Positions 27,001-33,000 of a stretch of DNA of 61,195 nt are shown one piece after another. Source of the stretch: a virus. Its lineage: Duplodnaviria; Heunggongvirae; Uroviricota; Caudoviricetes. Each line of letters opens with the position of its first letter. The first letter of the stretch is position 1. The stretch is taken from IMG/VR virus record IMGVR_UViG_2523533514_000007, one strand, 5' to 3'. A program made the position numbers.

Positions 27001-30000
27001 GCGCTGGTTGATAAATTCCGTGCAGACCTGGCGGATATGGCAGGTCAGTGCGTCGGTGGCTCTGCTGGCGGTGTTCCCTGGATATGCGGGGACACGACGT
27101 ATTTCTGGAAGCAGAAGAACGAATCCACGTACCAGACGGTGTACGGCAGCTACAAAAACAAAACGGAAAAGAATATCCATTTCGTACCGTTCATGACGGA
27201 TGAGAACGGGGTGAATGTGCCGACGAACAAACCGGAAGAAGACCCGGACATTCCGGGTATCGGATATTACGGTTCGAAATGGCGTGACAGCTCAGCCACC
27301 TGGACGTCACAGGACAGGGCGAGCCATTTCAGTTCATGGGCTCGCCGCGGGATTATTTCCGACCGTCTGGCAACGGCGATTTTGCGCCATGCGGGAAGAG
27401 TGGCGCTAAACGCGGGGGCATCATCGACAGTATCAGAGGTGCGCCCGTCATCGCCTTCCGGTGCAGAAGCCACAGGCGTCACAACACTGCTCTCTTACCT
27501 TGCCAGCGAGTCAGAGGGAAGCCTGAAAGTACAGGGATGGTCAGCCAGTGGCGGCAGGGCAGAAGTGGTCAGCGATGCGGAGGGAACCGGAGGTAAGGCA
27601 GTGAAGCTGACCAAGGAAGCCGGTAAAAGCAGCTGGGTGCTGGAGTACGCCGCGGGCAACGGTGCGGCTCTGTTACAGAAAGGGGGGCAGATTCGCTGCC
27701 GCTTTAAGGTTTCGGGAGCGCTGGCTGCGAACCAGTATGTTATGGCGTTTTACTGGCCGGTATCTTCACTGCCACAGGGCGTTGCCCTGACCGGAGACGG
27801 GGGGAATAACCTGCTGGCAGCGTTCTACATCCAGACAGATGCAAAAGACCTGAATGTGATGTACCACAATGCGAAAGTAGCGACAAACAACCTGAAACTG
27901 GGAACCTTTGGCGCATTTGATAACGAATGGCATATGCTGGCTTTCCGCTTTGCCGGGAATAACAGCCTTCAGGTGACGCCGGTTATTGATGGTCAGGATG
28001 GCACACCGTTCACGCTGACGCAGTCACCGGTCAGTGCATTTGCGGCGGATAAACTGCATGTGACAGACATTACCAGGAATGCGACTTACCCGGTGCTGAT
28101 TGACAGCATTGCGGTGGAAGTGAACAACGCGGATGCCGCGGCATGATAAAAAAAGCCGCCAGTTGCCTGAGACCTCTGGCGGTGTGAGATTCATGGAGAA
28201 TCAAGGAAAGATACTACCACTTTCGTCATCGGCATTTTTAAATGAAAACTGTTTACTTAGTCAACCATAACGGTAAGAAATTATGACATTTCTGAACCAG
28301 TTAATGCTGTACTTCTGTACGGTGGTCTGTGTGCTGTATCTCCTTTCGGGTGGGTACAGGGCCATGCGTGACTTCTGGCGCAGACAGATTGACAAAAGGG
28401 CCGCTGAGAAAATCAGCGCCAGTCAGTCAGCCGGAAGCAAACCCGAAGAGCCGCTCATTTAGCGGCAACTTTCTTAATCACATCTTTCGACGAGAAAATC
28501 CCATGTCAGAAATTACATCCCTGGTCACTGCTGAAGCAGTGAAGGAAGTCCTGCGCTCTGAAGAAGTCCGGAGCGCACTGAAACAGAAACTTCGCCATAA
28601 CCTGGAAGCGCGTCTTGATGCAGAAGTGGATGCCATTCTGGATGAACTGCTGGGCGCACCGGCAGCTCCGGAGCCGGAAGGCATCGCGGGTGAGGGGAGT
28701 GCTTCAGATAGCGGTGACCCCACACCGGACAGCGACATGATGATGTAAGCATGCGTCAGGGACCATCGGTGTGTGCCGGTGGTCTTTTTTATTGTTGTGA
28801 GCTTCCGGATTGCGGGAGGCGGGGTATGAACCAGATGGAAAAAATCACAACAGGTGTGTCATACACCACGTCAGCGGTGGGAACGGGCTACTGGTTCCTG
28901 CAGTTGCTGGACAGGGTTTCCCCGTCTCAGTGGGCGGCAATAGGCGTGCTGGGGAGTCTGCTGTTTGGTCTGCTGACGTACCTGACGAACCTGTATTTCA
29001 AAATCAGAGAGGACAGGCGTAAGGCGGCACGGGGAGAGTAAGCTGATGAGCAGGAAACTCCGCTATGGTTTATCGGCTGCCGTTCTGGCGCTGATTGCCG
29101 CAGGTGCTTCTGCGCCTGAAATCCTCGACCAGTTTCTGGATGAAAAGGAAGGCAACCACACCACGGCATACCGTGATGGTGTGGGTATCTGGACCATCTG
29201 CCGTGGTGCCACCCAGGTGGATGGTAAGCTTGTCGTCCCCGGCATGAAGTTGTCGAAGGAAAAATGCGACCAGGTTAACGCCATTGAACGTGATAAGGCG
29301 CTGGCATGGGTGGCGAAAAACATCAGAGTGCCACTGACCGAACCTCAGAAAGCGGGGATCGCGTCATTCTGTCCTTACAACATTGGCCCCGGTAAGTGTT
29401 TCCCGTCGACGTTTTATAAACGAATTAATGCAGGCGATCGCAGGGGAGCGTGTGAAGCGATTCGCTGGTGGATTAAGGACGGTGGCAGAGACTGCCGTAT
29501 CCGCTCAAATAATTGCTACGGTCAGGTATCCCGTCGCGACCAGGAGAGTGCGCTGGCATGCTGGGGTATCGACAGGTAGCAGAATATTTTGCTGAAAAAT
29601 GACGTTTGCTCACGCGGACGGATAACACGAAATCCTGCGAACTGGCAAAATGCAAGTGAATAAAGTCAGGAAGATTGTTTCACGCTGAGGCACCGTAATG
29701 GTGTCTTTGTCATTTCTGCGCTTCGCACAAGCGTAAATAAACCAAAGAACCTTTCAGGATGAGCCCTGGTGGATAACCGGCAGTGGTCTGGTTAACCCTC
29801 TTTGGGCTGGTTATTCCTGTGCGCAGGGTTCATCACTAAAAGGAAATAACCGATGAATATGATGACCGTGCCGTTTCACGGCGATTCTCTTTATGTGGTT
29901 AACCATAACGGTGAGCCATACGTTCCCATGAAACCTGTCGTTGCGGGGATGGGGCTGGCCTGGCAATCACAGTTGGCTAAGTTAAGACAGCGTTTTGCGT

Positions 30001-33000
30001 CAACTATAACGGAAATCGTTATGGTTGCTGAGGATGGGAAACGACGCAATATGGTGTCCCTGCCACTTCGAAAACTTGCAGGCTGGTTACAAACCATCAA
30101 TCCCAACAAAGTAAAACCCGAAATCCGCGACAAGGTAATCCAGTATCAGGAAGAGTGCGACGATGTTCTCTATGAATACTGGACGAAGGGGGGTGTCGTT
30201 AATCCCCGTCGAATGAGTGTGATGGAAGAACTCAATCAGGCCTGCGCTGACATGAAACGGGATAAAAACATTGCCAGTGTGTTTGCTACCGGGCTGAATG
30301 AGTGGAAACAGGTTAAAGCCGCGCATGTATCAAAAATCCGCACATTGATAAACGAAGCGAATCTGCTGATTGATTTTGTCCTGGCTGATACAGGCAAAGG
30401 GAAAATAACAAAGGCGGATTGATGGAGTGGTGGCTAATGATATCGGATAAACTCATAACGCTGGCGAAGGGCCTTTGTGTAATCGTCGGTATTTCATTTT
30501 CACTAATGCTGGTTGTTCTTTTTCTTTCCATAAACTGGATGGCGTTGACTTCGGCAGGGCTGGTGGGGTGAGCATAAACCGAATGCTTTCCGCGTTTACC
30601 GTTATTCTGCTGGTGGTCTGTGGTGCGCTTAGTCTGGGGCTGAATCATTACCGTGATAACGCCATCGCTTACAAAGAGCAGCGCGATAAAGCCACATCCA
30701 TCATCGCAGATATGCAGAAGCGGCAACGTGATGTAGCAGAACTTGACGCCAGATACACAAAGGAGCTTGCTGATGCTAATGCGACTATCGAAAGTCTCCG
30801 TGCTGATGTTTCTGCTGGGCGTAAGCGCCTGCAAGTCGCCGCCACCTGTGCAAAGTCAACGACCGGAGCCAGCAGCATGGGCGATGGAGAAAGCCCAGGA
30901 CTTACAGCAGATGCTGAACTCAATTATTACCGTCTCAGAAGTGGAATCGACAAGATAACTGCGCAGGTTAACTACCTGCAGGAATACATCAGGACGCAAT
31001 GCCTGAAATAATTTTTTTGCAAATCACAAAGTCAATTTAATGAGCCTCGCGATACGGGGCTTTTTTATGTCCGCAGTAAACGCGCTTCACACGCGCGACT
31101 TATGAACACAGAACCTTTCAGGATGACCCTTGAGGATGCCGGTTTGGTGATCGGTGCCTTTCTGTGGGCCGGAATCCTGTGTGACAAGGTTCATCACTAA
31201 AAGGTGTGCACTGATGAATTATCCAACTATCGTTAACGGCATCGATTTTCGAGATCTTGTTTTTGTGACAGGCAACGAGCCGGTGACGGATACCCGAAAG
31301 GTTGCCGTAGCATTTGGCAAAGAACACAAAGATGTATTGCGGAAAACAAGAGCCGTTGTTCAACAATGCTCAAAAGAATTTGCAGAGCGCAATTTTGCGC
31401 TTTGCTATGAAAACAATGAGTTACAGAACGGTAAACCCCAGCCCATATATCGAATGACAAAAGACGGTTGGACGATGTTGGTATTTGGTTTTACGGGGAA
31501 GGCTGCTATGACCTTTAAGGAAGCGTACATTCAGGCTTTCAACTGGATGGCTGAGCTTATTCAGCAAGGTCTGGCGAATCTGGAGGCGGAGCGCAACGCT
31601 GTAATGCTGGAGTACATGAAAGAGAAAGATGTCGCCAGTATGTCAGGTCGTTTGCTCAATCGCTGGGGCAGGGTGAAGAAGCCTCAGTTGCTGGCAAGGC
31701 TGGACAGGCTGGAGCAGCAGGGGCAGATTGCGTTACCCGGATTTGATAAAGGCATTTCAGCCTGACATAGCCATGCGCCGTATCGTCGCCGTATTCCCGC
31801 ATTAACAGAGACTGCAGCCACCTTATCTGCGTGAGTGTGCGGGGATAATCAAAAACGATGCACACCGGGTTTTCTCATTTTTCACGAGATGGGAGCGATT
31901 TCCCGCGAAGCCGCCTGTCCGGTGCGGTGGTGGAAGAAACCGGATAAAACAACCGCATTGTGCAAATATCGATCAAATATGGTGCTGCTGTGTGAAATCT
32001 GAAAAATCACAGCGGTCATTATGCATCAGTTTTTAACACAGGACGTCAGAAAGTGACATGGCAAAGCTGGACTGGAAAAAGCTGGAGCAGGCATTCCGAC
32101 GCGAACATGCCGAAACGGGAATAACATTACTGGACTGGTGCCGGAAGAAAAAGATTAATTACAACACCGCCAGAACCCGTATAAAAATGGGCAAAATCGA
32201 TCATGAAATTGATCATAAAACCGATCATGAAATCGATCATGACATCTCAGATGAAGAACCCTGCAATGACGCGGGTTCCGGCGATGAAAAATGCGCAAAA
32301 AACTCTGAAAAAAACTGCGCAAATTCGGCAGAAACGAAACGGATTCGTGGTTCCCGACTTTTACCACCTTCAAACGCTTTTTCTCAGCGAAACACCCACG
32401 CCGTAAGACACCGTGGATATGCGAAGTATCTTGAGGCAGATAACCTCATGGATGATGCGTCCGACATGGTGCTGTTCGATGAACTGGTGTTCACCCGGGC
32501 CCGCGCACTTTCAGTAACTAAGGCACTTAAAGGGATGTTCGCCGACCTGGAAGAGGCAACTGACGTGGAAACCCGCGTTGCTCTTTACGACAAAATACTC
32601 AAAGCTGAACAGGCCCTTGACCGGAATATTGCCCGTATCGAGTCAATTGAACGCTCATTGCTGACGCTGGACGTCCTGGCTGAGACAGCACCAAAACTTC
32701 GTGCTGACCGGGAAAGAATCAACGCCGCCAGAGATAAACTCAGAGCGGAAACCGATATTCTGACCAGCCAGCGTCGGGGCGTTGTTACGCCTGTCAGTGA
32801 CATCGTGTCATCGCTGCATGAAATGAGTAATTCGGGGAGACTGGATGACATTCCGGAAGAATGAACCGCGATGTGATGAGCCGTCAGAAATGACCGAGGC
32901 CGAACAACGTCTGTTCATCATGACTAAACTGAGCAATCCCTGGTGGCGGCTCAATCATCTCTACAAGATACAGAACGAAAAAGGTGAGCTGGTCACCTTC

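Follow-up and report, generated by a model that had tools for sequence, protein, structure and literature searches.

We concluded that IMGVR_UViG_2523533514_000007, a 61,195-nucleotide stretch of tailed-phage DNA (hereafter the window, meaning this whole stretch), carries two copies of a folded RNA leader, about 135 bases long, that is widespread and had not been catalogued before, one in front of the late gene called 'ant' and one in front of the late gene called 'rha'. The leader most likely controls the expression of the optional genes that follow it. A preliminary description of this DNA had offered a structured leader as one option for the two similar upstream regions, and strong covariation in the helices and in a predicted pseudoknot now speaks for that option. 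It had also left room for the similarity to be a peculiarity of one genome, and the leader was found in hundreds of phage genomes. The class to which it belongs, the cis-regulatory mRNA leaders, is known, while the family itself, its pseudoknot, the breadth of its cargo genes and the tie to rha appear to be new.

Homologous leaders, their common fold and the pseudoknot

Pairwise alignment showed that the two upstream regions are homologous over about 135 nt (29718-29855 and 31082-31216), and the shared blocks noticed earlier are present in both. Two of these blocks are exact, GAACCTTTCAGGATGA at 29747 and 31111 and GGTTCATCACTAAAAGG at 29827 and 31188, a 16-mer and a 17-mer that each occur twice in the 61 kb; even with up to two mismatches allowed, 0.06 and 0.01 occurrences, respectively, would be expected by chance in the whole window. 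Both block pairs also came out as repeat families in the window.

Seven divergent representatives of the family (one ant-type, one A-type, two P22-types, two phi80-types and one further type) were folded singly, and all seven took the same shape, namely a P1 hairpin of 4-6 bp, an unpaired A/C-rich linker of 13-25 nt and an irregular P2 hairpin of about 93 nt. The lower stem of P2, about 20 bp long, begins with CCUUU paired to the Shine-Dalgarno sequence AAAGG, and above it follow an internal loop of 6-7 nt on the 3' side only, the helices AGGA:UCCU and CCGG:CCGG, and an apical hairpin. The linker differs between types in length and in sequence, and was unpaired in all the single-sequence folds. 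In the window the parts of the two leaders lie as follows.

29718-29734 (+): P1 of the 'ant' leader, GCGCUU-CGCAC-AAGCGU, with the loop CGCAC at 29724-29728; from the fold, with a covarying stem
29735-29749 (+): A/C-rich linker of the 'ant' leader, unpaired in the folds
29750-29843 (+): P2 of the 'ant' leader, in which CCUUU (29750-29754) pairs with the Shine-Dalgarno sequence AAAGG (29839-29843); from the fold and covariation
29819-29823 (+): GUGCG, predicted pseudoknot partner in the 'ant' leader, pairing over 5 bp with the loop CGCAC at 29724-29728; from sequence and family covariation
31082-31096 (+): P1 of the 'rha' leader, GCGC-UUCACAC-GCGC, with the loop at 31086-31092; from the fold and covariation
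31097-31112 (+): A/C-rich linker of the 'rha' leader; from the fold
31113-31205 (+): P2 of the 'rha' leader, in which CCUUU (31114-31118) pairs with the Shine-Dalgarno sequence AAAGG (31200-31204); from the fold and covariation
31179-31184 (+): GUGUGA, predicted pseudoknot partner in the 'rha' leader, forming six Watson-Crick pairs with UCACAC at 31087-31092; from sequence and covariation

A covariance model was built from the pairs of the consensus minimum free energy folds and used to realign 83 matches, 79 of them distinct; alignment of 70 sequences by MAFFT followed by RNAalifold had recovered the inner helices only, with the 3' arms misaligned between types. In the covariance-model alignment of the 79 distinct sequences, 86.2% of the cells were paired, against 39-47% when the partners were slid. 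Changes on both sides were seen in 31 of the 39 pairs, with 376 double-change cells against 133 in shuffles, and none of 500 shuffles reached the observed value. Typical exchanges turn AGGA:UCCU into AGAA:UUCU, or CCGG:CCGG into GCCG:CGGC or CCAG:CUGG, and the P1 stem varies across the family between GCGC/GCGC, GCGU/ACGC and CGCUU/AAGCG. G-U pairs (259) outnumbered A-C oppositions (70) on the alignment, and this excess assigns the structure to the strand that codes for the cargo gene.

The loop of P1 can pair with the internal loop on the 3' side of P2, and both change in concert across the family. The loops were extracted without an alignment, by a stem search and by a fold-based procedure, and the following combinations of P1 loop and P2 internal loop were recovered, the last two having been read by eye.

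UCUCAC with GUGAGA
UCACAC with GUGUGA
UCGCAC with GUGCGA
UCGCA with UGCGA
CCGCA with UGCGG
CGCUC with GAGCG
CGCCC with GGGCG (by eye)
UGCCC with GGGCA (by eye)

In the pseudoknot columns 92.6% of the cells were paired, against 10-78% for slid partners, and 0 of 500 shuffles reached the covariation score; the central pair was GC in 50 sequences, UA in 18, AU in 5 and GU in 3. A covariance model cannot encode a pseudoknot, so the alignment was not fitted to this pairing. As judged from the sequences, the covarying loops indicate a pseudoknot of 5-6 bp. For it to form, the linker must bridge the lower stem of about 20 bp, and its length fits this span. One natural chimera (locus L049, 2520-2654) joins the P1 and linker of the ant-type to the P2 of type A, and its pseudoknot contains a G.A mismatch; it offers a natural test case for the function of the pseudoknot.

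In all types the 3' side of the apical internal loop (for example 31157-31169) is pyrimidine-rich and resembles an anti-Shine-Dalgarno sequence (GCCUUUCU, ACCUCUCU, ACCCUCUU), and after it comes an invariant GGG in tandem U.G wobbles. This stretch could be an alternative partner of the Shine-Dalgarno sequence or a binding site.

Several other candidates for a function of the leader were tried and rejected. The 'rha' copy holds a small upstream open reading frame (ORF) of 25 codons from ATG to TAA with a hydrophobic product, the ant copy stops after 5 codons, and core lengths of 87, 88, 89, 90, 91, 92 and 94 nt break the frame across the family, which rules out a leader peptide. Look-alikes of CsrA sites (GGA motifs) and of the hammerhead core (CUGANGA) in CAGGAUGA are absent from the phi80-type, and by eye their positions are base-paired and covarying. 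No integration host factor (IHF) site of the form WATCAANNNNTTR was found near either copy, and the whole window had 3 matches where 2.5 were expected.

Distribution, cargo genes and cassette boundaries

BLAST against phage records detected the region of the ant-type in 342 of them and the leader of the rha-type in 305, including 933W, many phages carrying Shiga toxin genes (Stx1 and Stx2 phages), and phages of Salmonella, Shigella and Klebsiella. Three pattern scans of IMG/VR each returned at least 120 matches. Copies resembling type A occur in 809 of 5426 complete E. coli genomes (~15%), at a median of 2 and a maximum of 8 places per genome (3-6 in the O157:H7 strains listed), and no annotation was found under these copies in the RefSeq complete E. 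coli genomes. The covariance model also matched one phage each of Pantoea (106 bits) and of Aeromonas (65 bits); according to the phage records, the hosts are Escherichia, Shigella, Salmonella, Klebsiella, Enterobacter, Citrobacter, Hafnia and Pantoea, together with one Aeromonas phage and possibly Actinobacillus, for which a record was listed. Rfam 15 gave no family match over the leaders at gathering threshold (C4, isrK, Pistol, riboswitches and thermometers included), and at E<=10 over 29550-31300 it gave three weak chance-level matches only, none of them on the + strand leader body. The literature consulted held no description of the leader or of a small RNA at this place, and the rha paper (Henthorn & Friedman 1995) could contain a prior mention. 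The lambda-like phages of E. coli and Salmonella belong to the best-studied genomes, yet the leader is unannotated in 933W, in the O104:H4 outbreak phage P13374 and in P22, phi80 and ES18.

A leader precedes rha of phi80 (locus L130, 5648-5778), rha of P22 (locus L124, NC_002371, 39508-39646) and gp79 of ES18. According to the literature, the Rha proteins of phi80 and P22 hold back the growth of the phage in IHF mutant hosts, and both of these rha genes carry the leader, which gives a testable handle on the old puzzle of Rha and IHF. In P22 the start of rha is annotated as a GTG at 39575, which falls within the RNA element, and an ATG at 39645 has GAAGG 8 nt upstream; this ATG is likely the true start, which would shorten Rha by 23-24 codons. 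The element is also overlapped by gp49 of Ss-VASD and by small minus-strand 'hypothetical proteins' in vB_Ecl_MII_001 and CharmingMan, and these ORFs look spurious or mis-started. Recognition of the leader therefore corrects gene starts such as that of P22 rha and flags spurious small ORFs across the element.

The profile hidden Markov model of the element gave 400 matches in 370 fetched loci, of which 395 were near full length. Downstream of them lie 355 complete ORFs, corresponding to 210 distinct proteins in 19 clusters, and at least 12 unrelated cargo families stand behind the leader. By Pfam the cargo comprised the following.

Rha + ORF11CD3
KilA-N + ORF11CD3
KilA-N + P63C
P22_AR_N + ORF11CD3
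ANT/KilAC
AntA
HNH_3 + AP2
HNH with a zinc-loop homing endonuclease
T5orf172/MUG113
TerB-like
Several clusters without a Pfam family

The start codon always lies 7-11 nt past the element, and in annotated phages the unit sits in the late operon in the same orientation as its neighbours. It follows Q, or Q and tRNAs, in CharmingMan, RothD and L007, lies between R and Rz in Stx phages, and comes after Rz/Rz1 in P22, ES18, ST104, phi80, PA-1 and the window. Two diverged copies belong here. In the 933W-like prophage L007 a leader (2122-2298) stands after Q and the tRNAs, at the usual stx slot, followed only by a 16-codon remnant of a TerB-like cargo gene, and this locus looks like a decayed cassette. 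phi80 has a second copy (L130, 7242-7355) before ORF x171.28 (N15 gp59-like, 242 aa), near cosQ, which has no terminator immediately upstream and has close relatives in an Aeromonas phage (L453, 2501-2614).

Around the leaders of the window, Pfam bore out the gene order holin, lysozyme, 'ant', Rz/Rz1, 'rha' of the preliminary description. A terminator-like hairpin before each copy was likewise found where it had been described, at 29687-29707 with a weak T tail and at 31042-31062 followed by TTTTAT. The genes and boundaries are as follows.

28751-29041 (+): holin (Pfam)
29046-29579 (+): lysozyme R (Pfam)
29687-29717 (+): terminator-like hairpin GAGGCACCGTAATGGTGTCTT with a weak T-rich tail, 5' boundary of cassette 1 (hairpin scan)
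29853-30422 (+): cargo gene 1, 'ant', P22_AR_N + ORF11CD3, 189 aa, annotated 'ant' in phage P13374 (Pfam, BLAST)
30475-31011 (+): Rz ORF (Pfam)
30743-30958 (+): Rz1 ORF (Pfam)
31042-31068 (+): intrinsic-terminator-like hairpin GAGCCTCGCGATACGGGGCTT followed by TTTTAT, 5' boundary of cassette 2 (hairpin scan)
31214-31765 (+): cargo gene 2, 'rha', Phage_pRha + ORF11CD3, 183 aa (Pfam)

The first gene had been labelled AntA-like, and Pfam gives P22_AR_N + ORF11CD3 instead. Nor does the idea of paralogous regulators hold: the two proteins differ in the family of their N-terminal domain and resemble each other only weakly, in a C-terminal ORF11CD3 stretch (BLASTP E=0.005 over 30 aa), and the leader assorts freely with its many cargo families.

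The related Stx1a phage LC645429 lacks both cassettes between homologous neighbours. For cassette 1, homology to it is lost at 29664/29665 and regained at 30607, inside Rz; for cassette 2, it ends at 30852, also in Rz, and is regained at 31773, 7 nt past the rha stop. These sharp breaks define each cassette as terminator, leader and gene, and they uphold the earlier proposal of moron-type insertions with their own upstream control region. A hairpin with a T-run lies upstream of the leader in 157 of 183 unique family contexts and ends at a median of 13 nt before P1. No terminator was found downstream of the cargo, either between ant and Rz or in 31300-32100 after rha. The region 31042-31120 on the minus strand has a sub-threshold Rfam match to Xanthomonas asX2 (27 bits, gathering score 70), which we judged to be chance, driven by the terminator hairpin read on the opposite strand.

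A moron is an autonomous unit of promoter, gene and terminator in the concept of Juhala and Hendrix. The leader cassettes resemble the lambdoid morons in that a single accessory gene lies between conserved late genes, is present or absent among relatives and has sharp boundaries. The classic ones, however, have their own promoter and a downstream terminator and are expressed in the prophage, whereas the leader cassettes have the terminator upstream, no detected promoter and no terminator after rha.

Leader types and cargo families assort independently: Rha + ORF11CD3 stands behind A-, P22- and phi80-type leaders, the A-type precedes six cargo families, and the mosaic joints fall exactly at the start codon. 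Together with the presence or absence of cassettes between related phages, the chimera L049 and the homing-endonuclease-like nature of some cargo, this pattern would also be expected of a purely DNA-level element, be it a promoter, an operator, a homology linker or a homing target for the exchange of late cassettes, with no role as RNA. We consider such an element very unlikely, because double changes in 31 of 39 helix pairs and the long-range covariation of two loops are not explained by the recognition of duplex DNA or by homology, the G-U excess shows strand polarity and the scan gave no promoter-like site. Recombination there probably follows from the conservation of the leader and is not its function. 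As the leader ends at the ribosome-binding site, it makes a portable 5' module for cargo exchange, a common 'expression socket' for a shuffled pool of KilA-N, Rha, Ant, HNH and T5orf172 genes.

Transcription, ribosome access and processing

A shared promoter or operator, the other option of the preliminary description, was not borne out. No sigma-70-like site was found on the + strand in 29500-32100 by a simple consensus scan, which weak or activator-dependent promoters could escape; the P1 loop contains TTCACA, which resembles a -35 box, but no -10 partner goes with it and it covaries as RNA. Since the P1 hairpin covaries, it must itself be transcribed, and the transcription start must lie upstream of it. 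In lambda, RNA polymerase modified by Q reads through terminators. With a terminator upstream and no promoter detected, the cargo is therefore expected to be expressed from the late transcript only.

The Shine-Dalgarno sequence is paired with a probability of 0.995 in the ant leader and 0.994 in the rha leader, and with a median of 0.99 in 190 unique leaders. The median for 35 control starts in the window was 0.66, and the two leader genes were among only three starts above 0.95. In RNA thermometers of the fourU/ROSE type, a U-rich strand holds the Shine-Dalgarno sequence in a helix of marginal stability that melts on warming. The helix at the base of P2 is rich in A-U pairs, is flanked by mismatches and takes a moderate energy to open, but the fold as a whole has an energy of -44 to -52 kcal/mol and contains a pseudoknot.

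Considering these results, we favour, with moderate confidence, a cis-acting structured leader on a Q-antiterminated late transcript, which limits or gates the translation or processing of accessory genes. Several points weigh against this. The alignment was fitted to the structure and many of its sequences are related, so that the per-pair counts given above overstate the number of independent events. The z-scores of single-sequence folding were mixed (-3.6 for the ant copy and -1.4 for the rha copy). In the P22-type most of the Shine-Dalgarno sequence lies immediately 3' of the long helix, and a short additional helix of 3 bp is all that holds it. Freeing positions -14 to +3 costs a median of 8.2 kcal/mol, compared with 7.1 for the 35 control starts; plain masking of the Shine-Dalgarno sequence may therefore be modest and may by itself fail to explain the conserved pseudoknot. 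As the opening cost is no higher than that of the controls, a leader that gates ribosome access and/or processing is favoured over a simple 'off' hairpin.

The modest masking energy, which suggests more than masking, is also in keeping with an element for RNA processing or stability, in which RNase III or another endonuclease would cut P2 and sever the cargo mRNA from the polycistronic late transcript. The terminator hairpin, conserved at its short distance upstream, would protect the 3' end of the upstream RNA, and cleavage at the 3' internal loop would detach the 5' arm and thereby make the Shine-Dalgarno sequence accessible. The lambda N leader and the R1.1-type sites of T7 are leaders processed by RNase III, and the present leader shares with them a long irregular helix with an asymmetric internal loop between cistrons, here a lower stem of about 20 bp, the 6-7-nt loop on the 3' side and an upper stem; cleavage could free the downstream ribosome-binding site. 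Unlike the loops of known RNase III sites, this internal loop is taken up by the covarying pseudoknot with P1, and cleavage of the leader is hypothetical. We regard processing as the main role as rather unlikely, and it is compatible with the favoured reading and not exclusive of it.

For the favoured reading, a gated leader on the late transcript, we have proposed a plausible model. The unit, in the order intrinsic terminator, P1, A/C-rich linker, P2 and, 8-11 nt beyond P2, the start codon, would be transcribed within the Q-antiterminated late transcript from pR'. The upstream terminator would block transcription that is not Q-modified, and the cargo would stay silent in the lysogen. In the late transcript the P1 loop would dock by 5-6 bp on the 3' internal loop between lower and upper P2, and the pseudoknot would thereby fix the geometry of the junction beside the strand that bears the Shine-Dalgarno sequence. 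So folded, the leader would limit or gate ribosome access and/or the processing of the cargo mRNA, and would keep potentially harmful accessory proteins low or conditional within an operon that is transcribed very strongly. An excess would plausibly do harm in the case of many cargo proteins, the possible candidates being Rha, KilA-N, antirepressor-like proteins, HNH and GIY-YIG-like nucleases and TerB-like proteins.

Hairpins that sequester ribosome-binding sites are reportedly known from T4, in front of gene e, I-TevI and mobE. There, too, the ribosome-binding site of a gene that is optional or selfish, homing endonucleases included, is paired in a hairpin within read-through transcripts, which limits the translation of a potentially harmful product. 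In T4, however, a shorter RNA that can be translated arises from a late promoter within the hairpin, and no promoter was found in the leaders; moreover, the leader is one conserved pseudoknotted family before unrelated cargo and not a gene-specific hairpin.

In topology the leader resembles the pistol ribozyme (RF02679), in which the P1 loop forms a pseudoknot of about 6 bp with the junction between two stacked helices of the following hairpin; this connectivity, and a frequent location near phage genes, have been described for pistol in the literature. Pistol RNAs are about 50 nt long and occur in Firmicutes, whereas the leader has about 135 nt, with its linker of 13-25 nt, and occurs in phages of Enterobacterales and Aeromonas. 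Rfam Pistol gave no match, and the roughly 10 highly conserved nucleotides of pistol, its purine-32/G40 pocket, its G-U cleavage step and its fixed-length junction were not found in the leader. The pseudoknot partner is followed by CAAGG, ACAGG, CAAAGG or CUGG according to type, with no conserved G-U, and the 5' side of the internal loop is essentially empty. Membership of the pistol family was therefore rejected, with only the topology shared.

The same connectivity, the invariant unpaired or wobble nucleotides (such as the GGG before the 3' strand of CCGG, in tandem U.G pairs) and an expression platform that includes the Shine-Dalgarno sequence might suggest a sensor or catalytic RNA, either a riboswitch-like receptor for a small molecule or for a protein of phage or host, possibly linked to the IHF-dependent Rha phenotype, or a pistol-like self-cleaving RNA, which would turn on the cargo in defined circumstances. 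This appears quite improbable. No riboswitch or ribozyme model of Rfam matched even at E<=10, and with 0-2 nt on the 5' side of the internal loop the nucleotides of the pistol catalytic pocket and its G-U cleavage step are absent. A ligand pocket would usually show more invariant unpaired positions than the few that the types have in common, and the cargo genes have no common metabolic theme.

A bolder form of the gated leader is offered tentatively, as something we think rather improbable. It would be a new class of pseudoknotted regulatory RNA with pistol-like connectivity that switches through a host or phage factor, a small molecule or site-specific cleavage, and sets the timing of the translation of selfish or accessory late genes in lambda-like phages; its misregulation would be the basis of the Rha phenotype, in which rha of phi80 and P22 is lethal to the phage only in IHF-deficient hosts. 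Should the fold turn out to sense a signal or to be a site of processing, Shiga-toxin phages would gain a new mechanism for the control of their late genes.

P22 sar, c4 of P1/P7 and Gifsy-1 IsrK/orf45-anrP likewise act after transcription, at the ribosome-binding site of a gene of the antirepressor type. These are trans-acting or antisense RNAs of the immunity region, whereas the leader is a cis fold in the late operon. Antirepressor genes are classically under antisense RNA control according to a review, and the window encodes RNAs of the C4 and isrK families, so that a phage small RNA (C4 or IsrK-like, 14451-14638) might open or close the leader as its target or decoy, as in P1 c4/ant and Gifsy-1 IsrK/anrP. 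We hold this to be highly improbable. The leader showed no complementarity to the C4 or IsrK of the window and no Rfam match; for duplexes of either leader with C4, isrK, AsxR or one of the two Xcc1-like RNAs, the energies did not surpass those obtained with shuffled versions of the small RNAs (z -1.7 to +1.6); and the leader occurs in phages of different immunity types and before cargo other than antirepressors.

Other features of the window

In the early region, Rfam matched a C4 antisense RNA at 14451-14538 (-) with 77 bits and an adjacent isrK at 14563-14638 (-) with 62 bits, and this pair suggests an antisense-controlled antirepressor module like P1 immI or that of Gifsy. Matches to sRNA-Xcc1 were found at 13532-13615 (-) and 5236-5325 (-), with 80 and 65 bits.

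All tested segments of the window were 100% identical to the Stx2a phage P13374 of E. coli O104:H4. The late region contains STnc100 at 25798-26003 (+) (208 bits), which we take to be the leader RNA of the late promoter, the AsxR anti-sRNA at 26005-26057 (-) (88 bits) and three tRNA genes at 24141-24389 (+); these are known features of Stx2 phages, and they place the start of the late operon about 4 kb upstream of the leaders.

Between the two cassettes, a 50-codon ORF at 30419-30571 (+) encodes the hydrophobic peptide MMEWWLMISDKLITLAKGLCVIVGISFSLMLVVLFLSINWMALTSAGLVG; this ORF shares bases with the stop of ant, precedes the Rz domain and has no Pfam match. The start of Rz is ambiguous between TTG at 30475 and a later start. 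Downstream of rha, four tandem 12-nt units (AAAATCGATCAT-like) at 32193-32252 (+) encode a repeated (H/K)(E/T)IDH motif in the ORF 32058-32864, which has no Pfam match and whose 933W counterpart, in the same position, is annotated as a putative small terminase subunit.

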